This document shows, one piece after another, positions 24,237 to 46,528 of a stretch of DNA of 64,000 bases. How positions within the stretch are numbered: the first letter of the stretch is position 1; every line of letters starts with the position of its first letter. The stretch lies in NCBI GenBank assembly GCA_023379025.1, contig JAMCTH010000009.1:69092-133091 (forward strand), given 5' to 3'. The stretch is from Patescibacteria group bacterium. GTDB taxonomy: Bacteria; Patescibacteriota; Microgenomatia; UBA10105; UBA927. The position numbers and the translations under genes were made by a program. The notes beneath the pieces are model-generated. The model saw only the letters and a program-made list of their open reading frames with translations, had not been told where the DNA came from and searched no databases.

Positions 24237-24788
24237 TTAAAAAATTCCTTCCAGACAAAAAATATTTAGCTTCTCTGCTTTTTGTGCCTTCTCACAAAGC
24301 GGACGCAAATCACAGTGTCGGCAGAGTGAATCATGAAGATCGTCTTTATGGACACCCAGTGTTCCCCGTTTCTGGTGAAGATCAAATAAAAGTTTCAAAT
24401 ATTTTCCTTCTGCTATCCTTGGAATCTCATCTCTGCGTTCATATCCGTACCATTCGTACAGCCGTTTATCGCCCTTACTCAAATTGCAATGTTTGCATAC
24501 CCGTATGGCGTTTTCCGGCGTATCTGGGCCATTGTGTTTTTTTGGAAGTATATGCTCTGTGGTTAGTTCGATTTGCTTTTCGCAATAGATACACTCATCC
24601 AAATGTTCCCGCTCCTTTTCCCATTCACGGAGTGTTGTAGACCATTCTATCTCGCCATCCCGCAATGCGAGAAACCGGTTCATCTGAAATCCTCGCCCCT
24701 GATTCCCGATGCAGGCGGATTTGGATATCAGCTTAGCATACTGCCAATAAATCGTATCCCGAATCGTTTGTGCGATAGGCGGAGGCAT
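24237..24788 (-). CDS. HNH endonuclease
   Basis: 183 aa; CIYCEKQ...EHILPKKHNGPDTPENAIRVCKHCNLSKG is a classic HNH/His-Me finger with a CxxC...CxxC zinc site. Low-GC DNA. Confidence 0.8.
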   Translation of the reverse strand: MPPPIAQTIRDTIYWQYAKLISKSACIGNQGRGFQMNRFLALRDGEIEWSTTLREWEKEREHLDECIYCEKQIELTTEHILPKKHNGPDTPENAIRVCKHCNLSKGDKRLYEWYGYERRDEIPRIAEGKYLKLLFDLHQKRGTLGVHKDDLHDSLCRHCDLRPLCEKAQKAEKLNIFCLEGIF

Positions 24789-24794
24789 AAGTAA

Positions 24795-25025
24795 CTAAAT
24801 TTTCCCTTGTTTCCTTCTATTTTTATGAATACGAACATGCTTGCCTATACTGATGACTCGTACATTTCGTTTTGTAGTTTTCCCACCTAGCGCTACTGGT
24901 TTAACATGGTGCGCTATGTTCCCCTTAGGCGCTCTTCCTTTCGGATAACCCTTTGCCTTCAAAACTCTTTTAAGTTTACCGGGGTTCCGCCCCTTCCTTA
25001 TCTGAGTCTTAGTTGGTTTTCTCAT
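24795..25025 (-). CDS. 76-aa highly basic mini-protein with HNH-like core (HH-x-P-x-ALGG...N...H..IH)
   Basis: MRKPTKTQIRKGRNPGKLKR... then IAHHVKPVALGGKTTKRNVRVISIGKHVRIH. Overlaps the hsdS stop by 17 nt and lies 6 nt from the HNH gene. Confidence 0.45.
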   Translation of the reverse strand: MRKPTKTQIRKGRNPGKLKRVLKAKGYPKGRAPKGNIAHHVKPVALGGKTTKRNVRVISIGKHVRIHKNRRKQGKI

Positions 25026-26391
25026 TTTCCTGGCCTCCCTTCTCTATCATCTCTTCAACTTTGCGTTTTGCTTCCTCCAATAATTCCTTCGATTTCTTCC
25101 GTGCCTCGTGCGACTGACGTACCAAGTCTGCAATTTTTTGTTGAGTGGATTCCGCCAAAACGGGAATAAGCATATTATCAATTGATTCTTGCGGGACTGC
25201 GGTCAAAATAGTTCCTGCGCATCGTTTTTTTAATTGCTTTTGCATTATCAAACTTCTGGCCATCACCAATAATACCTCCGGTAATACTTCATCACTTCGA
25301 AATTGAAAAAATCCTGTCGATGCAATATATCCATCTTGTTCTTCGTCGATAAGTGCGACTTTTTCTAACGATCCTTCGACGCTGGAAACGATAACATCAC
25401 CGGCTTTCAATAATCGTTTCGCTCTGCCCGGCGCCTCCTTACCCGATACTTCCTCATATCCATCAACAACGCCAATTGATGCATTTATGTTTGCAAGCTC
25501 GACGTACTTAAATGTCTCATCCGGTTTCTCGCCTGGTTTAAAATTTGCAGGTACGTCAAAAATAGTTTTCTTTAATGTTTTCGCTCCCCGCTTTTTTAAT
25601 TCTGACTCTAATACTTCATATTTCGGTTGAAAATAATCCGCATCTATCCTATTCGTTTTTGTAGAATCAGAAAAATTAATGACGTAACTCAAGTCATCGG
25701 AAAATTGTAAATTTTTTAACTCTAGCTCATCCAACAGCAAATTTTCTGCATCTGCATAGCTTTTTTTTGAGACATCAGTCATTCTAAGTGATTCTTTATA
25801 TAACGACTCAACCTCTTTGACTTCATTCTCTAAAAACGTAGGGATCAATATTGTTTTTGTTTGCCAAAGAAAAATATGTTGTTGAACGCTTCCTACTGGC
25901 AATCGTAACACCTGTTTTTTCCCATACTTCGAATTTAGAAACATAGCAATCATTAGGGCCGAATAGTTTGGTTTTAACGAAATCTTCACAATGTCTTGAT
26001 TGGAATTTAGCTTTTGCGGAATATTGAGAGCCATTGCGGCATTTCCAACAGATCCAGACATTGCCAATAAAACCTGTCCCTCATAAACGCGGGATTTCTT
26101 TAATATTTCATCAGATCTATTATCAATAAATTTAACGTCGTTATAATCTATATAACCTTCCTTAATATTATTGGCTTCAATAAATGGAATCCCATCTTCG
26201 ACCCATTCAATGTAATTTGTTAAGTCGTATGCACCAAAACTAATTAAGCTTTCAGATATATCCTCAAGTGTTTGATGGGGTATAGATTGGAGTTTTTTTG
26301 CTATCTCTAAATATTCCGGCTGGTAATATTCAGAGTCTATCCGTTGCGCCCCTTCAAGTTGAGATTTTTTAATAATTGAATATGTGGTCAT
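25009..26391 (-). CDS. hsdS: type I restriction-modification specificity subunit HsdS (two TRDs)
   Basis: 460 aa; N-terminal ...RIDSEYYQPEY, duplicated TRD architecture with a central conserved region; 4-bp ATGA overlap with the upstream gene. Confidence 0.85.
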   Translation of the reverse strand: MTTYSIIKKSQLEGAQRIDSEYYQPEYLEIAKKLQSIPHQTLEDISESLISFGAYDLTNYIEWVEDGIPFIEANNIKEGYIDYNDVKFIDNRSDEILKKSRVYEGQVLLAMSGSVGNAAMALNIPQKLNSNQDIVKISLKPNYSALMIAMFLNSKYGKKQVLRLPVGSVQQHIFLWQTKTILIPTFLENEVKEVESLYKESLRMTDVSKKSYADAENLLLDELELKNLQFSDDLSYVINFSDSTKTNRIDADYFQPKYEVLESELKKRGAKTLKKTIFDVPANFKPGEKPDETFKYVELANINASIGVVDGYEEVSGKEAPGRAKRLLKAGDVIVSSVEGSLEKVALIDEEQDGYIASTGFFQFRSDEVLPEVLLVMARSLIMQKQLKKRCAGTILTAVPQESIDNMLIPVLAESTQQKIADLVRQSHEARKKSKELLEEAKRKVEEMIEKGGQENEKTN

Positions 26392-26969
26392 AACGTCTTA
26401 TTCGGAAAGTTGAGAAATTCGATATATGAAAGAAATGCCTTTCCCTTATCGGTAATTAAATAGTGATCATTCCTCGAATGGATTAACCCTGCATCAAAAA
26501 GGAATTTTAAATAGAAATCGAAAGTCCAATTTTTTAATAGAGGAAATATATTTTGAGTGAAAACAAAAAATAATATTGTATCTTTTGATTGTTCGCCGTT
26601 TCTAGTCTCTTGCGCTCTTAATCTCTTTAGCAATTCTATTTGGCTTCCAAAAATAAACCGATAGATTCTTTCAAAATCTAAATATATTTGTGTGTAGCTT
26701 AAATCTTTTTTAATTTTTTCTATCTCTGATGTTTTAGGATTATTTTCTGCTAATTTCTCATACTGCGGAGGGGGTGATAAATTCACTCTAGTTCCGCCCG
26801 GTAAATCTGCGCTTTGAATCCGATTCAATAAATTTTTAATCTCTTGGTTAAATTTTATAATTAAAAATATAACTATAGAAGGCCAAATCAATACCTTTAC
26901 ATATTCAAGGATCAAAACCCAATCTATTCGCGAAACTGACCGTATGGTAGTTGACGTTGTTGCTATCAT
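26388..26969 (-). CDS. hypothetical membrane-anchored protein embedded between hsdM and hsdS
   Basis: 193 aa; one N-terminal TM helix (WVLILEYVKVLIWPSIVIFLIIKF) and a soluble C-terminal domain with winged-helix-like LLKRL...GLI...YLITDKGKAFLSYI. No recognised family. Translationally coupled on both sides. Confidence 0.55.
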   Translation of the reverse strand: MIATTSTTIRSVSRIDWVLILEYVKVLIWPSIVIFLIIKFNQEIKNLLNRIQSADLPGGTRVNLSPPPQYEKLAENNPKTSEIEKIKKDLSYTQIYLDFERIYRFIFGSQIELLKRLRAQETRNGEQSKDTILFFVFTQNIFPLLKNWTFDFYLKFLFDAGLIHSRNDHYLITDKGKAFLSYIEFLNFPNKTL

Positions 26970-26971
26970 CT

Positions 26972-28912
26972 CTACCTCCGAAAACTAAATTTCTGCTCTT
27001 TCGCAAATTCGATAAATTTATCTGCTATCTCATCCAAATCGTGGTCGAGGACTTTGCGACCGCGGGAATCGTACACATAGTTTCCCGAGGAATCTTTTTT
27101 ATAGACGTATTCGCCGGAGTTATCTTTGCCGCCGCGCTTGGAGACCGCCATAAAAATGGGATAATCGGCAAGCGGCTCACTCTCCCATTTTTGCAAAAAC
27201 AATACTGATGTCTTGGTTCCCGTGTGCGGTTTAAACGTATTTCCGTGCAGCCCGACGACGGCGAGAATACGCGCCTTGTCAAACAGCCACTGCCGGATAT
27301 ATTCCATATTGGTATTGTTAAATACTCCCTGCGGCAACACAATGGCGATTCTGCCGCCGGGTTTAACGAATTCAAGCACCCGCTCGATAAAGAGAACGTG
27401 CCGCTCTACCGTATTCACCAGCTTTCCGTTTTTCTTTCCGAACTCGTACTGACGGAGTAACCCAGGATCTTTGAGCTCACCCGCAAACGGCGGATTCGTA
27501 AGCACGAGGTCAAACGAAAAATTTTTAAACGTCTTTTCATTTTCTTCCTGCTCGCCGTAATCCTGACATTTCAAAAGCCGTTGACGTAGCTCCCGCCGCG
27601 CCTGCAATTTTTCGTCGTCTTCCCCCTGCCATTCGCGCGGATCAAGCGAGTTGAGCTTAAACAAATGCGACCGTCCATCACCTGCTATTAGCATAAGAGC
27701 GCGTGAAACTTTCGCCGTTTCATCGGCAAAATCAATGCCGTACAAATATTGTTTTGAATATTCCTGTTTCGCGTGTTCAGTCGATAAATACTGTTCTTTC
27801 ACCCAATTCATTGCACCAATAAGGAATCCTCCGGAGCCGGCCGCGGGATCCAACACATACTCGCCCGATTTCGGATTGAGCATTTTGACTGCCATCGCGA
27901 TGACATGGCGCGGGGTAAAATATTGCCCCTTCTTCCCCTTGGCCACTTCCGGAATCAGATATTCAAACGCTTCGTCGATGATAGATAAATCAGCGCCGAA
28001 AAGCCTAGCGGTTTCCATTTCTCCCACAACCACGGACAAATGCTCGGGAGACAATCGGATGAGTTCCTGTTCATAAAACGTCCCGGGCCATTTATATATT
28101 GCCTTTCGGAATAAATCGTTGATCGCCGTATACGTTTTTGCGGGATCTTTATATTTACGGAAATAGATTTCATTATCCGGCCGGCTTTCTGCTTCCATTT
28201 CGTCGTACAGCTTTGCGTAAATGAGTTTGAATACCTCGTTAAATACATCAACGCCGGCATTGGCGAGCACCAATTCCTCCATGATCTCTATCGCCCGCTT
28301 CAAATCAAATTTTGGATTGGTATCGCCAAGTGTCTTTTTTTCGCTCAATAAATCATCAATGGTTTTGTTGGCAGATGGAATATCCGGAAGCGTATCTTCA
28401 AATTGATTCGGATAATTCCGATACAAGATCACGCGGTCAATCCCATTTGACCATACGCCGATTTCGCATCCTTCCGCGTTTAAATAACTCTTGAGTTGAT
28501 CAATACCTTTTTCCTCCGTTGGGCTTTTTACTTCGACAATGATATACGGCGTCACCTTGTCGGTTTTGTACACAACAATATCCGCCGCCTTTTTATGGAT
28601 TTCCCGCCCGAAATGAATGCTTTTTTCCGTCTCCAACCGGTCATATGGATACCCAAGAAGCGCATGAAGCTTGTGAAGCCACAACTGCCGCACAATTTCT
28701 TCCGGACGACCGAGTTTTTTCTGTTCGTCGTATACTACGCGTGGATTTCCCGTTTTGAGATCTTTGATAAAAAACTTTTTTTCTTCTTCCCAGATGTAGA
28801 GTACCGAGTTGATATCAATACCCTCAAATTCCTTTAACCCATAGACGATGGAGGCATCTTTAAAAATTCTGTCAATAATTTCTCCGGCTTTATTCGGTTT
28901 TATGGTTGGCAT
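26972..28912 (-). CDS. hsdM: type I RM N6-adenine DNA methyltransferase HsdM with N-terminal HsdR_N-like PD-(D/E)xK domain
   Basis: 646 aa; motif I VLDPAAGSGGFL, motif IV TNPPFAG. N-terminal 150 aa contain ADIVVY...IIVEVKSP (D...ExK), resembling the N-terminal nuclease-fold domain of HsdR. Confidence 0.85.
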   Translation of the reverse strand: MPTIKPNKAGEIIDRIFKDASIVYGLKEFEGIDINSVLYIWEEEKKFFIKDLKTGNPRVVYDEQKKLGRPEEIVRQLWLHKLHALLGYPYDRLETEKSIHFGREIHKKAADIVVYKTDKVTPYIIVEVKSPTEEKGIDQLKSYLNAEGCEIGVWSNGIDRVILYRNYPNQFEDTLPDIPSANKTIDDLLSEKKTLGDTNPKFDLKRAIEIMEELVLANAGVDVFNEVFKLIYAKLYDEMEAESRPDNEIYFRKYKDPAKTYTAINDLFRKAIYKWPGTFYEQELIRLSPEHLSVVVGEMETARLFGADLSIIDEAFEYLIPEVAKGKKGQYFTPRHVIAMAVKMLNPKSGEYVLDPAAGSGGFLIGAMNWVKEQYLSTEHAKQEYSKQYLYGIDFADETAKVSRALMLIAGDGRSHLFKLNSLDPREWQGEDDEKLQARRELRQRLLKCQDYGEQEENEKTFKNFSFDLVLTNPPFAGELKDPGLLRQYEFGKKNGKLVNTVERHVLFIERVLEFVKPGGRIAIVLPQGVFNNTNMEYIRQWLFDKARILAVVGLHGNTFKPHTGTKTSVLFLQKWESEPLADYPIFMAVSKRGGKDNSGEYVYKKDSSGNYVYDSRGRKVLDHDLDEIADKFIEFAKEQKFSFRR

Positions 28913-28913
28913 A

Positions 28914-29552
28914 TTAGCTTACAGTCCTCCACTGTCCGGCTTTCAGGATGGAAATGACTTTTCCCTTCATTTCGACCAAGCTGGTAAAAAATATTGGCGG
29001 ATAATTCGGATTTTCCGGCTTCAAATAATGATACGGAGGCTTATCTTGGGAAATAAATCGCTTGATCGTTGATTCCTCGCCGATCTGTGCATACACAATA
29101 TCACCGGAGGCGAATTCTTTTTGACTTTTCACCAACACGTTGTCGCCATCATTAATACCCGCATTGATCATCGAATCTCCAGAAATCTTCAGGAGAAAAA
29201 CTTCGGCATCTAGCTTCGAAATATCTTTTGAAACCGGCTTCCAGTCTCCGTCGATAACGATTGATTGAAGTGGTGCCCCTGCATGACTCACGCCTAAAAA
29301 AGGAACAAGCGGATCTCTGCCTAAGGCTTCATATCCGTATGGCAATATCGCAAGACTGCGCGCTGCGGATCCATTGCGCTTGATGATCCGTTTTTGTGCT
29401 AATTTCCCGAGAAGATCTATCACTGACTGATTCGAAGAAACGCCGAGGCGCTCCCGCATTTCTTCAAACGTCGGCGGGTACCCCGTATCTTTTATATAAT
29501 CGTAGAGGATAGACAACATTTCCAATTGACGCTTCGTTAACGGCAGATTCAT
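28914..29552 (-). CDS. lexA: LexA-like repressor (N-terminal wHTH plus C-terminal S24 self-cleaving peptidase)
   Basis: 212 aa. N-terminus LTKRQLEMLSILYDYIKDTGYPPTFEEMRERLGVSS...IIKR aligns with the LexA DNA-binding domain. C-terminus GDSMINAGINDGD...TIKRF carries the Ser/Lys dyad. Stop lies 1 nt before the hsdM start. Encoded in low-GC island DNA. Confidence 0.8.
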   Translation of the reverse strand: MNLPLTKRQLEMLSILYDYIKDTGYPPTFEEMRERLGVSSNQSVIDLLGKLAQKRIIKRNGSAARSLAILPYGYEALGRDPLVPFLGVSHAGAPLQSIVIDGDWKPVSKDISKLDAEVFLLKISGDSMINAGINDGDNVLVKSQKEFASGDIVYAQIGEESTIKRFISQDKPPYHYLKPENPNYPPIFFTSLVEMKGKVISILKAGQWRTVS

Positions 29553-29700
29553 AATACTGCCATACTACCCGACTAAATATTCTGGGTCAACTGGAAATCT
29601 ATATATCAAATAGCATCATTATCCATAAAACCCTGCGGGTATAAAAGCGCGATCAGAAATACCTAAATGTAAAGTGTCTCGGGCCGAAAGTTTATTCGAT

Positions 29701-31407
29701 TTATGACAATTTCCCCAAAAAATCGTTTATCTTTTGTTCTATTGCCGAACGACGGTATGCGAGAAATTCTTGAAAATTATCCATCTCCCAAAGCCGTTTA
29801 TCTGCCGGAATAAGTTGGGACGTAAGCGCTGTCTCACCGCGTTTTGGAATAATTTCATTTGTAAAGTAATCGATTGGCTCTCTGTCTAGTATGTGCCTGT
29901 TCGTTTTCCCTCCGATAAATGCAAGGTTAGCAATTTCGTTTATATCCTTGGAGTCAATGTTCCGTTTGGTTAGCTGGGCTTTAGGAAATATATGATGCCA
30001 TTGAATTTTATGCGTATCCCCTAGCGTTTTATCCGAAAGCTGCAGCCCAGTCAGCCAATCCTTTGCGCCATTTGCCTTTAGTACAAAATACAGCATGGTA
30101 AATATAGGACTAACTGTCGTCTTACCCGCAAGCTCGCCGGGTTCAAGTTCAAATCGCCGTACGTGCTCCTTGAGCTTGGCAATCAAATCATCGAGCGTAC
30201 CTCCACGAAACAATACTGCTAAATCCGCATCCAAAATAGATTCCGAAGATCCCATTCCATAGTGTCCGCGTATGTGAGCCAGGAAAAACCATCGCAACAG
30301 CTTCTTTTCCTCATCCATGCTCAATTGCTCATTGTGAAGGTACGCAAAAACGGCGATTGGAACGACAAGCATGGGTGACGATAAATATTCCAGATTGTCA
30401 ATTCCAGCGTTTTTCCGAAGGAAGTTCACGGCAAACCGCAGGCTGTTTTGAGCAATATCCCATGCTTCCGCCAACTTTTCTTTGGAATACCGACCAATGG
30501 TCTTGAATTTGCTTTGTTTTGTCGCAAACACGGTCATGAAGCGCACGAGTAACCAATCAAACACATAATCTGAATCGTCCCCAAATGTCTCAGCAAAGTC
30601 ATCCATGAGATTCATAAATCCGCGCCATTTGGCTGTGATTTGTGCTAATGCCAGATCAGAACCCCGTAGTTTCACCCCAAGTGAATTTACGCGGACAAAT
30701 ATCTCCGTTACCTCCTCATACGACATTTCGCTCTCGAGGAGTTGTATGTCATACATATATTTTTCAATATCTTTTACTTTCTGCAGCCGATCGGAGTAAC
30801 GGAGGTAGTTGGGGTCCTCAAACGAGGTGACGCCCGCGCGCTTGAGAATTTCCGCATGGTTTTTATTGAATATATCCGATACGGATACCCATGTGGGTAT
30901 GTTTTTCAGCGCCCGGGACGTAACTACAAACGTCCGTTTTTTCAGTTCCTCCTGGATATCCCGGTCATCACCGTCATTTTCCATTTGTTCGTCAATATCA
31001 GCGGTTTCCGCTTCTTCATCCACTTCCAGGACTTCTATTGGCGGCCCTTCCGGATGCTCAAGATTAAAAAGGATTTCAATGGGCCGTTTTCTGTTCCTCA
31101 CAATAATCGGTTGCCCGGTTAATATTGCGGCAAGCGAGGTGATTCTCTGTTGGCCGTCCAACAACAACCATCTGCTGAGCGGTAAATTCGGTTTCGTGGC
31201 ATCCACGGACAAGCCGTGCGTTACCACATTTTCGGACGTTTGCCACACTAAAATACTTCCGGAAGGATAATTGCGATACAGGGAATCAAGGAGGTCGCGG
31301 ACCCGAGTTGCAGTCCACACGTATTTGCGCTGCATCTCCGGAAGCTGTAGCTCATCGTTCTGAACTTTATTAACCAAATCCCGAACGGAAATATCGCTTT
31401 TCTGCAT
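29701..31407 (-). CDS. GmrSD-family type IV (modification-dependent) restriction endonuclease, DUF262-DUF1524
   Basis: 568 aa. N-terminal ParB-like DUF262 with (L)LDGQQRITSL motif; C-terminal DUF1524 His-Me finger QWHHIFPKAQL...N...N. Confidence 0.8.
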   Translation of the reverse strand: MQKSDISVRDLVNKVQNDELQLPEMQRKYVWTATRVRDLLDSLYRNYPSGSILVWQTSENVVTHGLSVDATKPNLPLSRWLLLDGQQRITSLAAILTGQPIIVRNRKRPIEILFNLEHPEGPPIEVLEVDEEAETADIDEQMENDGDDRDIQEELKKRTFVVTSRALKNIPTWVSVSDIFNKNHAEILKRAGVTSFEDPNYLRYSDRLQKVKDIEKYMYDIQLLESEMSYEEVTEIFVRVNSLGVKLRGSDLALAQITAKWRGFMNLMDDFAETFGDDSDYVFDWLLVRFMTVFATKQSKFKTIGRYSKEKLAEAWDIAQNSLRFAVNFLRKNAGIDNLEYLSSPMLVVPIAVFAYLHNEQLSMDEEKKLLRWFFLAHIRGHYGMGSSESILDADLAVLFRGGTLDDLIAKLKEHVRRFELEPGELAGKTTVSPIFTMLYFVLKANGAKDWLTGLQLSDKTLGDTHKIQWHHIFPKAQLTKRNIDSKDINEIANLAFIGGKTNRHILDREPIDYFTNEIIPKRGETALTSQLIPADKRLWEMDNFQEFLAYRRSAIEQKINDFLGKLS

Positions 31408-31470
31408 ACTTCTGCCCTATTTTACACCCACCCCGCCCTTTTCGCGATGATAACAAATTTAAAAATCTCA

Positions 31471-32658
31471 TTACCTTTTATTCACTCGGTGGCGCGCTAT
31501 GCGGTAGCTGTCATCAAATAATTCGTAATAATCGCCGTAGATATATTTTTGTCCGTATACCGCAGTTCCGAGCGGCTCAAGTATATCCAGACGCATAAGG
31601 CGTTCGATCACGTTATATGCGCCCGGCGCCGTAAAACCTGTCCATTTCATAATTTCCGCGACTCCCACAATCGGCTGGCCAAACAGTTTCCGAACGAGCC
31701 CTAAGGTTAATGCTGCAGATTTTTTGCCGAGCATTTGCATTTTTGCAAAATCGCGGTCACGAAGTGCTGTAATCCGGGCACAGGTTTCTATAGACGATTC
31801 CGCTGTTTCCGCAACCCCATCCAAAAAAAACTCCAACCATCCGTCAACATCAGATTCGTCATCGTGATATGTTTGCAACTTCTCATAATAAAGCTTGCGG
31901 TACTTTTTAAAGTAACCCGACAGATAGAGAACCGGCAATTCCAAAAGCTTCGCATGCTGCATGTACATCGCGACCAGCATACGGCCCGTACGTCCGTTTC
32001 CGTCCGTGAACGGATGAATCGTCTCAAATTGTGCATGGATGAGTCCGGCTTTCACAAGCGACGGGTACTCATCTTCGGCATGCATAAACAATTCCAAGTC
32101 TTGAAGACTTGCGACCATATCTTCTGGCGCAGGCGGCACAAAAGATGCATCCATCGGCGTCTTGCCTCCGATCCAATTTTGACTCCTCCGGAATTCACCC
32201 GGGTACGCATGCTGCGTTGCCCGTGCGCCAGTCATGAGTTTCTTATGCAGCTCCCGGATCAAACGAAGAGAAATCGGTAATATTTCCGATCTCTTCATAC
32301 CGTAATTCATTGCCTCCACGTAGTGGATAATGTCATCCACGTCCGGCTCCAAACGCGATTTTTCTTCGGTCACTGGCGCTGCCACGGCATCTTGCAGTGT
32401 TGCTCTAGTCCCTTCGATTTGGCTGGAATAGGTAGCGTCTTTTTTGACAAACATCAAAAGAAAAAAATCTTTGTCCGGCAGTAACCGGGTGATGCCGTCC
32501 AGCTTGCCGACCAAACGGATCGCACGTTCATGTTTTTTATGGAGGAACGCTCGTATAGGGAATCCGCTCTTCGGTGGGAACGGGAAGGGCGTAAACGACG
32601 AGTATCCGTCTTTCTGTGCTATATACCGACCAATGCGTGGTTTGTTTATATTGCTCAT
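31471..32658 (-). CDS. Fic family protein (AMPylase-type; Fic_N plus Fic plus C-terminal wHTH)
   Basis: 395 aa; canonical Fic motif HPFTDGNGRTGR. Confidence 0.85.
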   Translation of the reverse strand: MSNINKPRIGRYIAQKDGYSSFTPFPFPPKSGFPIRAFLHKKHERAIRLVGKLDGITRLLPDKDFFLLMFVKKDATYSSQIEGTRATLQDAVAAPVTEEKSRLEPDVDDIIHYVEAMNYGMKRSEILPISLRLIRELHKKLMTGARATQHAYPGEFRRSQNWIGGKTPMDASFVPPAPEDMVASLQDLELFMHAEDEYPSLVKAGLIHAQFETIHPFTDGNGRTGRMLVAMYMQHAKLLELPVLYLSGYFKKYRKLYYEKLQTYHDDESDVDGWLEFFLDGVAETAESSIETCARITALRDRDFAKMQMLGKKSAALTLGLVRKLFGQPIVGVAEIMKWTGFTAPGAYNVIERLMRLDILEPLGTAVYGQKYIYGDYYELFDDSYRIARHRVNKR

Positions 32659-32699
32659 ACGAATATAAACATATTATACTATTTTGTTTATATTTGCAA
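32643..32699 (-). promoter_or_regulatory. sigma70-like promoter (TTGCAA-N15-TATAAT) with three TGTTTATAT/ATATAAACA half-sites straddling the fic start codon; candidate operator
   Basis: TGTTTATAT at 32643-32651, ATATAAACA at 32663-32671, TGTTTATAT at 32685-32693. -35 TTGCAA at 32694-32699 and -10 TATAAT (minus strand) at 32673-32678. Confidence 0.4.
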
Positions 32700-33767
32700 C
32701 ACCAATGTAAACGAACCGTGTAACCCTTTTCTATCCCCGGAGTGGGGAAAAATAGTTTCTGACACATGTAATTGCACCGTCCGGAACATATTTCCGCGAC
32801 CATCCCTCTTCACTCAATTTTGTCAATTTATCGTGAATTTGGCTAAAAAATCGGCGGTATTCACGTTATTTCATCGTCATTGCGCCGTAGACCAATCCTA
32901 TGGGAATCACAAAGATGCAGAGGGGGCTACCGGTCCGCCCACGATAAACCCGACTGCTACGATTCCGTCCCATCAACCCTCTCTCCCCCGTTGACAAAAC
33001 GCGCGCAGAAATCCCGATGCTTCAGATCACTGTTTGCACCGAAAGCACCCGGAGTGGAAGAGTGGAAAACGAAACGATGTCAGAAACAAACACCATCACC
33101 CGCAAACTCGTCCGGATCCGCAAGACCATCGGACACCTCCGCATACCGCCTGCATCGTTTTATGTCATCGCCTGCAGTCACCAAACGCTCCGCATCCTGG
33201 AGCGCACCGGTGATACCACGAAACTCCACACCCATGTGCTCCGTCATATGGCGGCGCCGGAACAGATTACACGTCTCGTCCGTTCGGCCATTGCCGGAAC
33301 CGACACAAAACCCCTCGCCGCGGCCTATGCCGGACCGCGCTCCGGATTGTTCCATACGGTTGCGTCCCTCTTGTGGTTTGGGGATGACGTCATTCCGGCC
33401 GTCATCTTCCCCGAACACAAAGGTCGAGGGAACGGACACGCCCTTCAGGAACTGGTCCCGGACGGCCCGGATGTTTTCCGATACCCACGACCTCCTTCAG
33501 ACGCTTTCGCCCGACAACGAAGTAGCGGTCCGGCCGCTCGTGACCATCGGGGGCTATCGCGACACTACTTCGGAGGACGGCATGAGTACGCTTCTAAACC
33601 TCGCTTCCCGCGTCAAAAAGATACGCATACTCTTCATCAGTGCAACTCCTCGGTGAGGCGGGGTTGCCCTCATGCGGCATGCCCTCATCCCCAAGCAGGA
33701 AATTTTGAAATCACCAAAACCAAATTCTTCAACGTCCTCCAGGGAATAAACGGTCCTGACATCGTCC

Positions 33768-41907: not shown

Positions 41908-42219
41908 TTACGCTTTGTTGGCCCGTTTACTGAGTATGTATTGCACCGAAGGGCTTACTGATTTATCCGTCCGGTGGATACAGCCTATCCAGCAACACGG
42001 ACGGCGCATGCCGTCTTTGAGCTCGGTGCATACCCGCTCCACATGTTCTTTTCTGGTTTTCGGCATTTTAACGGAGATCGTCCAGCAAATCCATTCATTA
42101 CGCGCAAGCGGGGTAAGGCTTTCCCAAAGCGCAGACGCTTTCGGATCAGACAGTAAGGCCTCCCGCAAATCCGGAGGAACGTCATGGACGACGCCTCCTG
42201 ACATATCTTTTTTGGTCAT
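41908..42219 (-). CDS. YdeI/OmpD-associated family protein
   Basis: PPDLREALLSDPKASALWESLTPLARNEWICWTISVKMPKTRKEHVERVCTEL matches the P.DL..AL...P.A...F..L.P..R.E...W...AK...TR..R pattern of this family. Confidence 0.6.
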   Translation of the reverse strand: MTKKDMSGGVVHDVPPDLREALLSDPKASALWESLTPLARNEWICWTISVKMPKTRKEHVERVCTELKDGMRRPCCWIGCIHRTDKSVSPSVQYILSKRANKA

Positions 42220-42505
42220 AGCGTCATTCTAACAAATGTTCGGGTGTCCGACAAAAAAAGTGTTGAAGTAACGGGATAGGAAAAACTTCTTTCATGCAGA
42301 CACTTTTTTGTGTATCATAAAAGTAATGATACGGGGAAACTTTATCGGTGCGGCGGTTGTTGCGATAATCTATACGGTTTATATTTTGATTAAGCCGCTT
42401 CCGTCAAAACCGCAGGAAGTAGTTGCGCTCGTCGTTCTCAATGCCCTGACCATCGTGCTCCTGTCGCAAGCTTTCAAATAAATTTTTTACCTAATAAAAA
42501 GGGGC

Positions 42506-42991
42506 TTATTTCACCGCAATACATTCCTCATCTTCTCCCGGCGGTTGCCAATATTCTACATAACTATCAAACGTCTCTCCGCTTATTTCAAATGAATCTC
42601 TAGGCGGATTTTTACTTCTGGAGATCACCCGCTCCCTCATTTTCTCCATCGAACATGCGACGTAATACAGAATCGGCTTTGCGCCTATTTCATATATTTT
42701 TTTCTTTATATCGTCTCTTTGTGACTTAACCCAAAAACCTTCGTCCAGTATCACATCTTTACCTGCTTTTAGGATTTTGAATGCTGTCTCTGTTGCGAGA
42801 TCAGTAATTTTATTGTCATAGGCTGCAAAATTCTTATCTGCGGTTATCTTGTTTCCGAAAATTTTGATTATCCATTCGTCTTTGGTTATACGTACGGCTC
42901 CTGTTTCTTCCTCCAGTTTCCTGGCAACCGTCGTCTTCCCCGAACCGATGAACCCGCAGATAAGATAAGCAATAGGCTGTTTCTTATTCAT
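42506..42991 (-). CDS. P-loop NTPase / predicted small-molecule or polynucleotide kinase (AAA_33-like)
   Basis: Walker A ICGFIGSGKTT at the N-terminus, 161 aa; low-GC DNA. Confidence 0.55.
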   Translation of the reverse strand: MNKKQPIAYLICGFIGSGKTTVARKLEEETGAVRITKDEWIIKIFGNKITADKNFAAYDNKITDLATETAFKILKAGKDVILDEGFWVKSQRDDIKKKIYEIGAKPILYYVACSMEKMRERVISRSKNPPRDSFEISGETFDSYVEYWQPPGEDEECIAVK

Positions 42992-43135
42992 GAGTCAATT
43001 ATATCAGAAGGATCGAACTGTCCAGCGAAGGGTCCTTGAGGCTAAAATAGCTAACTTCCCCTAAACGACCCATCCATCAACGAAAGAGTGGAGTTCGGAC
43101 ACAGACTTGGACTAAGAAAGATACTTGCGGAGAGC

Positions 43136-44236
43136 TTAAACTTTAAAATATGCGAAAACCTCGTTCATCGCTTCAAATCCTCGCTTTATATTCCTTTGTA
43201 GTCCTGGTGAGTTGTGGACAGTGGCCATTTTCACTCGTAATTTCAGTTTTGAGACTAAGTATCTGAGTTTGAAGATCTGAAACTTATTATTGAAATTAGT
43301 GGGGAACGTATTTGTGAGAGAATAGCCTTCTTTAAACCATGTCATTCTGGGCTCCCCAAAAAACAGGCTGTATGCAGAAAATTCCATGACGGGATCACCT
43401 GAAATGCACTCATCCCAGTCAACAATACCTGTTATATGCTTCCCATCTGACAGCGTATTCCAGTCTGCAACGTCGTTATGGATTAAAGCTGGTTCATCGC
43501 AATTGATGAGATCTGCGTTTTTATTAAGGAGTGCCAATATCTTTTCTTGCTGTGAATGAGTGATCTTATGGTCATTATCAAGGTATTCAAGGTCTTCATG
43601 AAGCGAGGCAAAAAAATGCTCACGGAGAGAATTGTACTGTCCTTCCAACGTGCCTTTGCTCTTTGCTATTTTATTGTCAAAAAAACCGAAACCCCTTGTT
43701 TTCACCCGATGAATCAGGCCGATTTGTCGACCCGTTTCCCTAATTAGTTGTTCTTCATAAGCGTATTTGATTTCACCTGAATGGGTAAAATTTCGCATTG
43801 TTTCTCCCGGCAAAGCTTCCATGATTATGAAATCAAAATCAAATTTTTTCCTGTCATTGACGATGATATACGTTGAATAAGTAAGAACCCCGTACGCTTT
43901 TGCCTTTTCTGCAGCGACTTTTTCAACCCAAAAATATCCATTTTTTACATCTTTTGGATGCATTCTGATTACTATATTTGTACCATCCGCCAATTTTGCT
44001 TTCAGAACGTTATTAACCAAACCATCGGTTATCAACTCTCCAACCTGAACTACTTTAGCATCCTGAGGCTTTTTCCCTGTTTTAATCATTCCATATTCAA
44101 TTGCTGGTACTGCATCACTCTTATCAAAACTTTCAGATCGATCTAAGAAGATTTTTTTCATGTCTTCGGCAGAAATATTACGGTTAGTCTGCCAATAAAA
44201 CATATTGTGGCGGTTTGAAAGGTCAAGAATAGGCAT
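43136..44236 (-). CDS. aminoglycoside phosphotransferase (APH) / choline-kinase-like family kinase
   Basis: Brenner motif LIHNDVADWN and downstream IVDWDE; 366 aa; low-GC DNA. Confidence 0.7.
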   Translation of the reverse strand: MPILDLSNRHNMFYWQTNRNISAEDMKKIFLDRSESFDKSDAVPAIEYGMIKTGKKPQDAKVVQVGELITDGLVNNVLKAKLADGTNIVIRMHPKDVKNGYFWVEKVAAEKAKAYGVLTYSTYIIVNDRKKFDFDFIIMEALPGETMRNFTHSGEIKYAYEEQLIRETGRQIGLIHRVKTRGFGFFDNKIAKSKGTLEGQYNSLREHFFASLHEDLEYLDNDHKITHSQQEKILALLNKNADLINCDEPALIHNDVADWNTLSDGKHITGIVDWDECISGDPVMEFSAYSLFFGEPRMTWFKEGYSLTNTFPTNFNNKFQIFKLRYLVSKLKLRVKMATVHNSPGLQRNIKRGFEAMNEVFAYFKV

Positions 44237-44457
44237 GGAGGAATTATATCAAATCCCTGAAATTGAACTTATAGATTATCTTAACTATATTTTTAGATTG
44301 TTTTCATGCCCTAGATCAAAATTTGCTCGAGAAATGGGCTTCGCAAAGCTAAGCTTTGATTTTCTATGGCGCGTTTTGACAATCTAACATTTTAGCTCGC
44401 TTACTGGGACGATTTTAGAGCGGTGGATTGCTCCCCGTTCTTGACCTAACTCGAACT

Positions 44458-44694
44458 TTAGCCATCCTTTTTCTTCCAGGGTAGTTTATCCTTTTCATGC
44501 TTTTTGGTTATTCTTCTGTCTAGATAATTAAAATATGATGGTAGTAAAAAGAAAGTAAGAACAAATCCAAGTATTACTACCCCTTTAACGTCAAGAAAAC
44601 TAGCAAAAAATACTAATAAGGTAATCGCGAAAAAAGAGAATTTCAACGGATCACTGTAAATATTATCTATGAAATTATTGAAGATACTTTTCAT
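44458..44694 (-). CDS. small membrane protein, hypothetical
   Basis: 78 aa, two hydrophobic helices. Confidence 0.35.
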   Translation of the reverse strand: MKSIFNNFIDNIYSDPLKFSFFAITLLVFFASFLDVKGVVILGFVLTFFLLPSYFNYLDRRITKKHEKDKLPWKKKDG

Positions 44695-44729
44695 AAAACT
44701 ATTAATTTGTTGCTATTTAATGTATATAA

Positions 44730-45320
44730 TTAAAGTGATGGTTTTATAACTTCACTTGGAAGTCCATACATATCCTTCGTTGATACTTCAGTACAAACCA
44801 AATCAAATATACTTGTTCCGTTGTTTTCATCCCTAACCTGATAGTACCTTCTATCTTGACCAGCATAAACTGGCTCAAATATTACTACATTACTATTTAC
44901 GCTAATATCACCTAAATGATAACCACCCTCACCTTTACTAAAGGCAATTATATTTCCACTAGTCACGTCAATTACTGCATAGCCAAAACAATCTGTACCA
45001 CACCCCCAAGAAACAAAAGTATAGTGTCCAGCGAAATTAACTCCCTTTGCAACGACCTCTTTAATTCTTGTATCAAATGTTTTTGCTTCGGGAAAATTGG
45101 AAAAATTGACCGGACTAGGACTTCCTTCAAATTTCGGCCGTGTATTTAATTGATTTTTTGCTAATTGCTCCTTACATGTCCCTGCAGTAGAAGTTTTTGT
45201 AATACTTTTACCCACACCAATATCTTTCTGTTTAACTTTTATGTAGCCTGATAAGGCTATCCCAGTCAAACATAAAACACTAATAGAAATTAATAATTTA
45301 CGATTAATTTTCCTTCTCAT
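44730..45320 (-). CDS. secreted/lipoprotein-like hypothetical protein
   Basis: N-terminal signal-like LLISISVLCLTGIALSG; Cys-containing mature domain; no known family. Confidence 0.45.
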   Translation of the reverse strand: MRRKINRKLLISISVLCLTGIALSGYIKVKQKDIGVGKSITKTSTAGTCKEQLAKNQLNTRPKFEGSPSPVNFSNFPEAKTFDTRIKEVVAKGVNFAGHYTFVSWGCGTDCFGYAVIDVTSGNIIAFSKGEGGYHLGDISVNSNVVIFEPVYAGQDRRYYQVRDENNGTSIFDLVCTEVSTKDMYGLPSEVIKPSL

Positions 45321-45513
45321 CTACTACTCCCAAAGAACTGAAAGAGCTTAAAAGTAAAAATCAGTAAATTCTGAACCAATAATTCCAATACTTAGCATTT
45401 TCAGTTTCATAGGAAATATAATAAAAAGCACCAGTAAAACCAAGCTCCGTAATCCTAGTATTAATCTGACTGAAAGTCTAGCACAAGTTATCAAGGCTTT
45501 CCAAAATCCGATT

Positions 45514-46285
45514 ACACACCCCCGGGGTGTGGGCAGACCTACCCAATGTCGTGATATAAATGTGATTCAAGAAATAGGAACCGCTGATATTCTGCCTGAT
45601 CAAACGTACTCCTTTGCAGACTCTCCGCATTCCGATAATATCCCATAAGCAATGTTTTATCCAACATCGCCATATCTGCACGTGATGCATATGACGCGAA
45701 CGAACTCCACCGATACTGAATAAGTTCGTTCTGTGAATGCAGGATGCCGGCGCTTAAGGGATTGAGGTGAATGTATCTGGCCACATGTACAAGCTGCTCA
45801 TCCGTTTCTATCCGCACCGCCTTAAACATGGATTGAAACAGAGCTCCAAACCTCTTTGTTTTGATATTAAAGTACTTCGCATACCCATTTTGAATTTGAG
45901 AAACGAATGTGGCTATTCCTCCATTTCTCAGTTGAGTAAGAAGCATATGAAAATGATTTGGCATCCAGCAAAATGCGAGTATATTCACCAACTTCAGATG
46001 CTGGTGTGCAAACTGTTCGAAGTAGTGTTGTTTTGCAGCCAAGGATAGCCTGTTATATTCAGAGAAACGTACCGGAGGATGTTCAAAGCGATAATACTCG
46101 GCAAGATCTAAAAAACGCTGGTAATCACGACTATTAATGAAAATTATCTGATTCGCGACGCTGCGATTAAAAATATGATACGTCTCTGACGTTTGACAAG
46201 GAACATAACGATATGGCATCACGCATACTATACGCCCCTCAATTAGAATATTCAGTAAGATGACCCACACCCCGGGGGTGTGGGT
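45514..46285 (-). mobile_element. IS200/RAYT-like element: HUH-Y1 transposase gene flanked by CACACCCC-GGGGTGTG hairpin palindromes
   Basis: Imperfect palindromes at 45514-45533 (ACACACCCCCGGGGTGTGGG) and 46265-46285 (CCCACACCCCGGGGGTGTGGG) bracket the transposase ORF. The element abuts the 3' end of tRNA-Asn. Confidence 0.6.
45539..46219 (-). CDS. IS200/RAYT-family tyrosine (HUH/Y1) transposase
   Basis: HUH motif MPNHFHMLL and catalytic Tyr region VARYIHLNP. Start placed at the Met after the upstream hairpin; the ORF track extends to 46315 through the palindrome. Confidence 0.7.
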   Translation of the reverse strand: MPYRYVPCQTSETYHIFNRSVANQIIFINSRDYQRFLDLAEYYRFEHPPVRFSEYNRLSLAAKQHYFEQFAHQHLKLVNILAFCWMPNHFHMLLTQLRNGGIATFVSQIQNGYAKYFNIKTKRFGALFQSMFKAVRIETDEQLVHVARYIHLNPLSAGILHSQNELIQYRWSSFASYASRADMAMLDKTLLMGYYRNAESLQRSTFDQAEYQRFLFLESHLYHDIG

Positions 46286-46322
46286 GGACACAATAAGAAG
46301 GCATAATTGTTTCAAAACTCAG

Positions 46323-46394
46323 CTCCCCCGGCTGGATTCGAACCAGCAACCTTCTTCTTAACAGGAAGCCGCTCTACCGTTGAGCTACAGGGGA
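46323..46394 (-). tRNA. tRNA-Asn(GTT)
   Basis: Manual cloverleaf: TCCCCTG-TA-GCTC-AACGGTA-GAGC-G-GCTTC-CTGTTAA-GAAGA-AGGTT-GCTGG-TTCGAAT-CCAGC-CGGGGGA-G, 72 nt. U1-A72 and G73 as in E. coli tRNA-Asn. CCA not encoded. Confidence 0.85.
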
Positions 46395-46528
46395 GCGGAG
46401 TTTTGAAACGGTATGCTCCAAACCATTTTTCTCTACTATCCAACTGGTCTAGAGAACGTTGATATTATACCATGAGAACTTTCTGTCTCAATAGCGTTAG
46501 AGTCTTCTGAAAGGTTTTGGAAAAAGTC

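Follow-up and report, generated by a model that had tools for sequence, protein, structure and literature searches.

Gene content and composition of the island

An array of eight co-directional minus-strand genes occupies positions 24,237-32,658 of the window (the whole 64-kb stretch of DNA that was analysed), where each had been placed by an earlier, sequence-only reading and was confirmed as an open reading frame. In order, these genes encode a Fic-family protein, a GmrSD-family enzyme, a LexA-like repressor, a restriction-modification (RM) subunit in which a nuclease is fused to a methyltransferase, a 193-aa protein, a specificity (S) subunit, a 76-aa mini-HNH protein and a 183-aa HNH endonuclease. 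All of the domain assignments made by that reading were upheld by Pfam, PADLOC and NCBIfam profiles, including that of the mini-HNH protein, which scores below the Pfam cut-off yet belongs to a real family. Likewise, the low GC content ascribed to the array was verified: individual genes range from 31 to 49% GC versus 55-57% in the 3-kb flanks, with the window as a whole having a GC content of only 50% and containing further low-GC patches.

The intergenic gaps, from Fic to the 183-aa HNH gene, measure 63, 148, 1, 2, -4, -17 and 6 nt. The tight packing described for most of the array is thus confined to its last six genes (LexA-like through 183-aa HNH), whereas Fic and GmrSD are set off from these by true intergenic regions. 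At the island borders, neither an integrase nor a flanking tRNA was found, and no direct repeats were convincing. As had been claimed, no HsdR is encoded within the 64-kb window, whose large ORFs belong to housekeeping genes and whose sole helicase is a 397-aa DEAD-box protein.

A lexA-RM-S module is conserved around a variable cargo slot

Comparison with related loci revealed a consistent association between the LexA-like and RM genes. The former lies upstream of the latter in 70/70 loci with enough upstream sequence, at a distance of no more than 40 nt in 61 of them, bearing out the significance that had been attached to its position 1 nt upstream of the methyltransferase gene. The link is reciprocal, as two LexA-like homologues were likewise found directly upstream of RM. 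Furthermore, the pairwise identities of the two proteins co-vary (Mantel r = 0.68, a value reached in 0 of 2000 permutations), and the two co-occur in MAGs labelled as other phyla.

The S subunit (25,009-26,391, minus strand) possesses two target-recognition domains, matches Pfam Methylase_S and the PADLOC Specificity_I models, and aligns with the S subunits 5ybb_D and 3okg_A in the PDB (E = 5e-21). It has a counterpart downstream of RM in 67 loci, with an identity of only 26-64%, which is compatible with diversification of the recognition domains.

Between RM and S, the window carries a cargo gene (26,388-26,969, minus strand) which, at 31%, has the lowest GC content in the island. Its 193-aa product, a putative membrane and winged-helix protein, combines a hydrophobic helix at the N-terminus with a winged-helix-like C-terminal region that weakly matches HTH_45 (E = 1.7e-6); it has no PADLOC match and a poor AlphaFold 2 model (pLDDT 55), and is a singleton among the cargo clusters. 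Across related loci the RM-S gap varies from 21 to 2081 nt and houses more than 40 unrelated ORF families, including NYN, PIN, PemK/MazF, PBECR3, an RnlA-like domain, Trypsin_2, DUF3800, AAA_21, KAP NTPase, Schlafen/AlbA_2 and DUF4145. The slot is a hot spot that holds a differing gene in almost every relative, many of them toxin- or Abi-like. Accessory defence genes, such as PrrC, are also harboured inside the operons of Type I hsd loci.

The sequence-only reading had raised the possibility that the eight genes act as one system and had suggested that the conservation of their order be checked. In relatives, the order lexA-RM-S is conserved. The other five genes (Fic, GmrSD, the 193-aa gene and the HNH pair) were encountered solely on this organism's own contigs: none of about 90 related loci has them, not even that of the closest relative, L218, whose RM is 89% identical. 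It follows that they are not partners of RM and S. The conserved unit consists of the lexA-like gene, RM, a variable cargo slot and S, and the lexA-RM-S module has spread mainly through Patescibacteria.

The fall in GC content across the island, together with the presence of RM proteins 89% and 86% identical in MAGs labelled as other taxa (Candidatus Wunengus and Gammaproteobacteria, respectively), points to horizontal acquisition. In our assessment the segment, which lies in a chromosome labelled Patescibacteria by NCBI, is probably a horizontally acquired composite defence island of at least four independent modules, one of which is a lexA-like/Type IIB-like RM/cargo/S operon. Stacked here are a SoFic-like Fic gene, a GmrSD-family Type IV enzyme, the lexA-like-RM-cargo-S operon and two locally added HNH genes; the eight genes are a mosaic of separate and mostly known defence modules.

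A LexA-like repressor heads the operon

The first gene of the operon (28,914-29,552, minus strand) encodes a LexA-family repressor with a winged-helix DNA-binding domain and an S24 self-cleaving domain (Pfam LexA_DNA_bind and Peptidase_S24), which scores 146 bits against TIGR00498, above the cut-off of 111. Between 53 and 55 of the 55 homologues retain the residues A91-G92, S127 and K164, which correspond to the Ala-Gly cleavage site and the Ser/Lys dyad. A promoter scan placed the operon promoter at 29,562-29,590 on the minus strand (TTGACC, 17 nt, TAGTAT), and since the ATG follows the -10 hexamer by about 9 nt, the transcript would be nearly leaderless. A predicted operator, CCCAGAATATTTAGTCGGG, at about 29,568-29,586 (motif match 29,566-29,578), lies between and overlaps both promoter hexamers. 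This arrangement of promoter and operator is conserved in 51/53 non-identical upstream regions of related loci. The operator consensus approximates to GAMYAAATAGTCGGG and forms perfect palindromes in some loci (CCCGACYN4RGTCGGG), while its left half is degenerate in many, the window included. A DnaA-box-like element is usually found upstream of the operon.

This conservation indicates that a single strong promoter, with a palindromic operator in its -35 to -10 region, drives the operon; the LexA-like protein would bind that operator and hold expression low. The intact cleavage site and dyad imply RecA-stimulated self-cleavage, in which case DNA damage or phage-induced single-stranded DNA might raise the expression of both enzyme and cargo. 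A rise in restriction enzyme during DNA damage seems risky for the host, so it is uncertain which way the benefit would run.

In its pair of domains, its above-cut-off TIGR00498 score, its cleavage site and dyad, and the palindromic operator on its own promoter, the protein resembles general LexA/SOS repressors; it differs from them in forming a mobile unit together with a restriction enzyme and in having an operator seen, within the DNA examined, only at the lexA-RM-S operon. Damage-responsive regulators are also known from other defence systems, such as CapH/CapP of CBASS and the WYL-type BrxR/CapW. By analogy, the proposed logic would be the same, a defence-operon repressor being released by a DNA-damage signal, but here the regulator is a predicted LexA-type self-cleaving repressor and its client is a restriction-modification enzyme with variable cargo.

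It is conceivable, if on balance doubtful, that the LexA-like protein instead serves these small genomes as their general SOS repressor, with RM, cargo and S riding in its operon as members of the SOS regulon. NCBI names its homologues LexA, in keeping with the match to the LexA equivalog model; the module of locus L003 sits between recA and recX; and the DnaA-box-like element hints at a connection with the core control of replication. A study of the Patescibacteria SOS network was published in 2017 and may already describe part of the lexA-RM-S module. Against this, the LexA-like gene of the window is part of the low-GC island and came in with it, and LexA both co-varies with RM, as described above, and occurs together with it in MAGs labelled as other phyla. 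In addition, the operator was not found upstream of recA in L003, nor at other places in 0.9 Mb of flanking sequence, and RM relatives at 43-52% identity occur without LexA. This reading overlaps the one that we prefer, the two differing only in the purpose given to LexA.

A role as an establishment or dosage controller akin to the C proteins of Type II systems, permitting a burst of expression on entry followed by a low level, with damage sensing irrelevant, appears unlikely to us. The position of the gene at the head of the operon, the overlap of the operator with the gene's own promoter (which suggests autoregulation) and the clear mobility of the module would all suit such a controller. 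However, near-universal retention of the Ala-Gly site and Ser/Lys dyad would be unexpected if self-cleavage were unused, and with nuclease and methylase in one polypeptide, differential expression cannot delay restriction.

The RM and S subunits have a Type IIB-like architecture

Type IIB enzymes such as BcgI and BsaXI are defined by the fusion of a nuclease to a methyltransferase, with the S subunit on a polypeptide of its own. The RM gene (26,972-28,912, minus strand) encodes such a fusion, in which an N-terminal PD-(D/E)xK nuclease (HSDR_N_2, E = 2.6e-22) is joined through a helical connector to a gamma-class N6-adenine methyltransferase (N6_Mtase, E = 1e-40; motif I at residues 355-363, NPPF at 473-476). 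Among PDB sequences, RM.BsaXI (8w0p) was the top match (E = 1e-35), collinear over all three regions, and it was also the best match in a Foldseek fold search, with E = 2e-27 across 673 columns, where Type I HsdM reached about 1e-16. The predicted nuclease residues of the N-terminal domain, E96, D111, E127 and K129, align with E73, D90, E105 and K107 of BsaXI, which are essential by mutagenesis (PMC11997821), and an alignment of 35 homologues showed these four residues and NPPF to be invariant. We conclude that RM and S constitute a Type IIB-like restriction-modification enzyme, with architecture, homology and catalytic residues established and cleavage predicted. This architecture, with the nuclease fused to the methyltransferase, accounts for the missing HsdR, and while the suggestion that an HsdR_N-like domain stands in for HsdR is borne out by the conserved BsaXI-type tetrad, the idea of an undescribed system is not.

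The likeness to BsaXI, in sequence and fold, and to BcgI, by architecture, thus covers the nuclease-connector-methyltransferase chain, the two recognition domains of a Type I-like S subunit and the lack of HsdR. Nevertheless, RM is only about 23% identical to BsaXI, is shorter (646 versus 916 aa) and is without the C-terminal knob and paddle, the latter also being required for cleavage by BsaXI (PMC11997821). Moreover, unlike in BsaXI and BcgI, RM and S here belong to a LexA-headed operon with a cargo gene placed between them. By comparison with these enzymes, the S subunit would read a bipartite site, while RM would methylate adenine in host DNA and cut unmodified DNA through its own N-terminal PD-(D/E)xK domain with no HsdR motor, perhaps on both sides of the recognition site.

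There is only a small chance, in our view, that the pair is a classical Type I M+S or an orphan epigenetic methylase, with HsdR elsewhere and the PD-(D/E)xK domain inactive or otherwise employed. The methyltransferase and S subunits are indeed homologous to those of Type I systems, the best PADLOC model for RM is MTase_I (574 bits), source annotations of the family read Type I restriction enzyme M protein or N-6 DNA methylase, and the visible genome is limited to 64 kb. Yet the family keeps its four nuclease residues invariant, its sequence and fold are much nearer to BsaXI than to HsdM, and no ORF of at least 550 aa with both Walker A and DExx motifs was found flanking any of about 60 related loci. 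In the same vein, HsdR is missing from plasmid-borne relatives in cultured bacteria (43-47% identity), which consist of nothing but an RM+S pair or of RMS fused into one chain. These comparisons all favour the Type IIB-like assignment.

The best NCBIfam matches for RM and S are MAD2 and MAD5 of MADS (methylation-associated defence system), which indicates a kinship of the methyltransferase and S components with their counterparts in that system. An identity with MADS was rejected, as the scores fall far under the cut-offs (297 versus 720 bits and 154 versus 400 bits, respectively) and no other mad model of PADLOC is among the matches listed for the eight proteins.

Locally added HNH genes and independent modules

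Downstream of S, and overlapping its end by 17 nt, lies the gene for the 76-aa mini-HNH protein (24,795-25,025, minus strand). Its Pfam HNH score of 14.9 bits is under the cut-off of 21.4, but it belongs to a small real family with 20 representative homologues, in which H39/H40, N54 and H63 are conserved. It is followed by the gene for the 183-aa protein (24,237-24,788, minus strand), a zinc-finger HNH endonuclease of an McrA-like family (Pfam HNH, E = 4e-9, and HNH_5), whose homologues, 55-73% identical, occur in DPANN archaea, methanogenic archaea and CPR bacteria, in mutually unrelated neighbourhoods. The mini-HNH gene is a local addition outside the conserved module, and the 183-aa protein, to judge from these contexts, is a locally added member of a widespread stand-alone family. 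Neither protein is degenerate, a point raised by the sequence-only reading, as both retain their catalytic motifs; the role of HsdR replacement offered for them there is nonetheless contradicted by the absence of both genes from the roughly 90 related loci.

That all eight genes make up one new system, in which the HNH nuclease(s), perhaps with the 193-aa protein, replace HsdR cleavage for M+S, is thus highly improbable despite the tight or overlapping packing of the last six genes, the intact HNH motifs and the lack of HsdR in the window, given that five of the genes are missing even from the relative with 89% RM identity, that the 183-aa HNH family is stand-alone and that RM already has an intact, invariant nuclease tetrad.

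The remaining two genes of the composite island are separate defence modules. The GmrSD-family (DUF262-type) protein (29,701-31,407, minus strand) is a modification-dependent Type IV restriction enzyme (Pfam GmrSD_N, E = 3e-29) that matches the PADLOC model HEC-05 over its full length with 163 bits, and is an independent module. The Fic-family protein (31,471-32,658, minus strand) contains Fic_N and Fic domains with a HPFTDGNGRTGR motif, and matches PADLOC SoFic over its full length (336 bits), although it reaches just 133 bits against the NCBIfam SoFic equivalog, for which the cut-off is 550. On these profile matches it is a candidate SoFic-like single-gene defence system; like GmrSD, it is an independent module. 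Its start and promoter region is spanned by a repeat (32,639-32,717) that was scored both as an imperfect inverted repeat of 38 nt and as a direct repeat of 30 nt, and that is possibly a regulator site for Fic.

A conserved lexA-RM-S unit among the genes of the island

The sequence-only reading had taken eight minus-strand genes (24237-32658), coding in order of transcription for a Fic protein, a GmrSD protein, a LexA-like protein, an HSDR_N_2::N6_Mtase fusion (RM), an unknown 193-aa protein, a specificity subunit (S), a 76-aa mini-HNH and a 183-aa HNH protein, as a candidate for one novel system. The positions of the eight open reading frames agreed with that account, and its domain assignments were all upheld by Pfam, PADLOC and NCBIfam searches, the mini-HNH falling below the Pfam cut-off. 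The intergenic gaps, 63 nt between Fic and GmrSD and 148 nt between GmrSD and the LexA-like gene, followed by 1, 2, -4, -17 and 6 nt, divide the array into a tight six-gene block and two upstream genes, Fic and GmrSD, with intergenic regions of their own. Co-directional tight packing need not mean a single system, and it was conservation across relatives that set the true unit apart from its neighbours.

Homologues of RM (28912-26972) were very numerous, were 71-89% identical and came nearly all from candidate-phyla-radiation (CPR) bacteria. We gathered 91 related loci, which were then searched with the eight window proteins. Among those in which the start of RM is present with 660 nt or more of sequence before it, the LexA-like gene (29552-28914 in the window) was found upstream of RM in 70/70, at a distance of 40 nt or less in 61. 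A reciprocal search likewise found two LexA-like homologues directly upstream of RM, and the identities of the two proteins co-vary (Mantel r = 0.68; 0/2000 permutations as high). S was found downstream of RM in 67 loci at an identity of only 26-64%, a range that fits exchange of recognition domains. More distant relatives of RM, 43-52% identical, were found without LexA.

The Fic, GmrSD, unknown and both HNH genes were absent from about 90 related loci and were seen only in the window's own contigs, two public contigs with an identical island and the NCBI organism label "Patescibacteria group bacterium". The closest relative, locus L218 (LexA 85%, RM 89% identical), carries a different gene between RM and S and lacks HNH, Fic and GmrSD. 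Gene order is thus kept for lexA-RM-S and not for the other five genes. None of the individual parts is new in kind, the restriction enzyme being Type IIB-like and the others belonging to the LexA, Fic, GmrSD and HNH types. The proposal of an eight-gene novel system was not supported.

In the remaining nine of the 70 loci, a gene for a conserved small membrane protein with two helices lies between the LexA-like gene and RM. In eight of the nine (L017 6020-6463, L021 2021-2434, L029 6608-6988, L037 2349-2720, L041 820-1233, L044 6550-6999, L076 6597-6998 and L079 6591-6995) the encoded protein has 123-149 aa, the motif HDNTExDLILVPPSVLExKL and a pair of predicted membrane helices. The one member scanned against Pfam, that of L021, gave no match. 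This spacer protein is an optional fourth component of the module, and the window lacks it.

RM and S fit a Type IIB-like architecture

Pfam assigns residues 70-179 of the 646-aa RM protein to HSDR_N_2 and residues 311-644 to N6_Mtase, an N-terminal PD-(D/E)xK nuclease and an N6-adenine methyltransferase in one polypeptide. The top sequence match among solved structures was RM.BsaXI (E = 1e-35, versus ~1e-17 for Type I HsdM), in an alignment that is collinear through nuclease, connector and methyltransferase. In BsaXI, E73, D90, E105 and K107 are essential by mutagenesis and are reported to be conserved across Type IIB enzymes (PMC11997821). Their alignment partners in RM, E96, D111, E127 and K129, do not vary in 35 homologues, and the same holds for NPPF and motif I of the methyltransferase. 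When an AlphaFold model of RM (pLDDT 71) was searched with Foldseek, the top three matches were all BsaXI (best 8w0p, E = 2e-27, 673 columns), with HsdM ten orders of magnitude behind. The S protein (26391-25009) has two target-recognition domains, with Methylase_S (Pfam) and Specificity_I (PADLOC) models covering both halves, and matches S subunits in the PDB at E = 5e-21. Judged by sequence alignment and predicted fold, RM and S together fit the architecture of Type IIB (BcgI/BsaXI-like) restriction-modification enzymes.

Within this architecture, the C-terminal knob and paddle of BsaXI (D816, E823) are absent from RM, the alignment stopping at BsaXI residue 627 of 916, and the missing paddle places RM outside the BsaXI subfamily. 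In Type I systems the locus also encodes HsdR, a helicase-nuclease subunit of its own, and none is present here or in plasmid relatives. The absence of HsdR, already remarked upon from the sequence, was confirmed for the 64-kb window by a survey of open reading frames and domains, and the flanks of ~60 related loci held no HsdR-like gene and no open reading frame of at least 550 aa with both Walker A and DExx motifs. A known architecture, in which the nuclease is fused to the methyltransferase, explains the lack of HsdR at these loci. The idea that the HsdR_N domain stands in for HsdR therefore gains support from the invariant nuclease residues aligned with BsaXI, while the idea that the result is an undescribed system gives way to the known Type IIB architecture. 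Membership of MADS was rejected: although MAD2 and MAD5 provide the best NCBIfam names for RM and S, the scores lie far below the cut-offs (297 vs 720 bits for MAD2, 154 vs 400 bits for MAD5), and no other mad models were found among the listed PADLOC matches.

RM relatives at 43-47% identity, all without LexA and HsdR, are found on plasmids of cultured organisms and are suitable for experiments. In Picosynechococcus PCC 7002 (pAQ6; L226) the relative is a 1179-aa single-chain fusion, Trichormus plasmid D (L228) carries a bare RM+S pair, and so does a K. pneumoniae plasmid (NZ_LR890357; L227), where two DUF262 (GmrSD-like) genes come after S and recall the GmrSD gene near the module in the window. 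In a 2026 preprint on CPR methyltransferases, methylases are described as outnumbering nucleases. Many CPR "HsdM-like" genes seem to be without a restriction partner; the methylase itself carries the nuclease.

A LexA-like repressor with a conserved promoter and predicted operator

The LexA-like protein scored 146.2 bits against TIGR00498 (curated cut-off 110.95) and has an N-terminal LexA_DNA_bind and a C-terminal Peptidase_S24 domain in Pfam. Both the Ala-Gly cleavage site (A91 in 53/55 and G92 in 55/55 homologues) and the Ser/Lys catalytic dyad (S127 and K164, each in 55/55) are conserved. Upstream of the gene, 51 of 53 non-identical loci share a common promoter layout (29562-29590 in the window), in which a TTGAC -35 element is followed by an operator element, a TATAAT-like -10 hexamer and, about 7-9 nt further on, the ATG. 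The conserved operator element between the hexamers ends in AAATAGTCGGG. Some loci carry it as a perfect palindrome of the form CCCGACYN4RGTCGGG, such as ACCCGACCAATTGGTCGGGT, and a half-degenerate form exists as well. The location of this predicted operator between the two hexamers, together with the conserved A91-G92, S127 and K164, supports an autoregulated, self-cleaving repressor. From the position of the ATG in nearly all loci (29553-29590 in the window), the transcript of the operon probably has no leader or almost none.

At 10-30 nt upstream of the -35 element, a DnaA-box-like TTATCCACA was found in 42/53 non-identical promoters when up to one mismatch was allowed, 23 of them exact (L016, L040 and L050 are examples); ~2 were expected in shuffles, and 3.8% of background windows have one. 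In the window and its closest relatives a degenerate TTTCCAG takes its place, near 29592-29600. The element hints that the operon has a second input into its control.

An alternative to a repressor dedicated to this operon is that the LexA-like protein acts as the general SOS repressor, with the restriction enzyme as a passenger. No second operator was found in 0.9 Mb of DNA flanking the loci, and none upstream of recA in L003, where one was looked for. In another alternative the LexA-like protein would exert establishment control over the restriction enzyme, as a C protein does; the residues conserved in its homologues are those of LexA self-cleavage.

At L003 (8051-15013; same contig as L013) the entire lexA-RM-cargo-S module separates recA from recX, two genes that usually adjoin, and the cargo is a GIY-YIG protein with a membrane protein. 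Matches to the operator 14-mer in viral contigs were attributed to chance, there being no LexA-like or RM gene there.

A hypervariable cargo slot between RM and S

The distance from RM to S ranges from 21 to 2081 nt among related loci, and the open reading frames in this gap fall into more than 40 unrelated clusters. Pfam matches of these cargo proteins include NYN, PIN, PemK/MazF, PBECR3, an RnlA-like domain and Trypsin_2 with Trypco2, as well as DUF3800, AAA_21, KAP NTPase, Schlafen/AlbA_2, DUF4145 and CHAP; many small membrane proteins are also present. The dozens of genes in this slot are candidates for a role in defence or as toxins. The 193-aa cargo protein of the window (26969-26388) is a singleton among the clusters, and its single-sequence structure prediction reached a pLDDT of 55.

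Together with the adjacent half of S, the cargo gene is the lowest-GC part of the island, which fits a recent swap. Across 25701-26969, the cargo gene and the N-terminal half of S have 31-34% GC, compared with 45% for RM and LexA, and this shared low GC suggests that a single exchange brought in the cargo along with one recognition domain.

A possible link between DNA damage and immunity

The enzyme would act as an (RM)2S complex that protects host sites by methylation and, needing no motor, cuts out foreign DNA that is unmodified. The LexA-like protein would keep expression of the operon low, and its RecA-stimulated cleavage would raise the enzyme and its cargo during DNA damage or infection.

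A more far-reaching reading, which we hold to be doubtful, makes the lexA-RM-cargo-S operon a damage-triggered, two-layer immune platform of Patescibacteria and a few acquiring lineages. Phage-induced single-stranded DNA, or breaks made by first-line restriction, would trigger LexA self-cleavage; this would yield more of the motor-less Type IIB-like enzyme, and the same event would turn on the hypervariable abortive-infection or toxin cargo between RM and S. These reduced genomes might have this repressor as their main or sole LexA, in which case their SOS circuit would serve mostly immunity, with an extra DnaA input. On this reading, the cargo slot would also supply a ready list of new CPR defence genes. 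Independently of this platform, the strict, conserved link of a LexA-type repressor to a restriction-modification enzyme, with a defined predicted operator, offers a way, open to testing, in which DNA damage could adjust the immunity of organisms most of which cannot be cultured.

The SOS network of Patescibacteria was reportedly the subject of a comparative study by Sanchez-Osuna, Barbe and Erill in 2017 (Environ Microbiol 19:3465), which may already cover the LexA motif or operon. Our literature search found no description of a LexA-restriction-modification link in these bacteria, and as far as it reached, the strict link, the operator and the hypervariable slot are undescribed; the 2026 preprint on CPR methyltransferases is silent on all three.

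Fic, GmrSD and HNH neighbours and the borders of the island

The Fic protein has Fic_N and Fic domains and the Fic motif HPFTDGNGRTGR; it matched the PADLOC SoFic model over its full length (336 bits) and scored 133 vs 550 bits for the NCBIfam SoFic equivalog. A 38-nt imperfect inverted repeat, which can also be read as two 30-nt direct repeats, covers the Fic start codon and promoter region (32639-32717) and may be a regulator site for this gene. The GmrSD protein matched GmrSD_N (E = 3e-29) and, over its full length, PADLOC HEC-05. Its C-terminal domain (DUF1524 His-Me nuclease) gave no Pfam match at E <= 0.01, and a WHHIFP...N motif was seen by eye.

The 183-aa protein (24237-24788) matched Pfam HNH (E = 4e-9) and has a His-Asn-His motif, and for the mini-HNH 20 representative homologues were found, with the H, N and H columns conserved in 14 members of the family. 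An HNH nuclease as the partner of RM and S, the other replacement for HsdR that had been suggested, was rejected, since the HNH genes are not conserved with the module in the related loci. Relatives of the 183-aa protein are widespread, stand-alone genes in unrelated neighbourhoods, with identities of 55-73% in archaea and CPR bacteria. When CPR proteins are compared with those of DPANN or methanogenic archaea (L219-L225), the identity is 55-64%, which points to transfer between domains. The Methanolacinia copy lies between genes for a P-type ATPase and an alpha/beta hydrolase, the same gene types that border the island; this is probably a coincidence.

GC content within the island ranges from 31% (unknown gene) to 49% (Fic), compared with 55-57% in the 3-kb flanks. 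Its borders in the window show no integrase gene, no adjoining tRNA and no direct repeats that are att-like or convincing, and an Rfam search of the island gave no matches. The flanks and remainder of the window hold chromosomal genes (P-type ATPase, EamA transporter, hydrolase, ATP synthase, phosphoketolase, dnaG-rpoD and tRNAs). A second low-GC patch (42000-46400; 36-42% GC) ends at a tRNA-Asn (46322-46394) and contains genes for an AAA_33/zeta-toxin-like kinase (42506-42991), an APH-family kinase (43136-44236) and an IS200-like Y1 transposase (45539-46315); it is probably another acquired islet.
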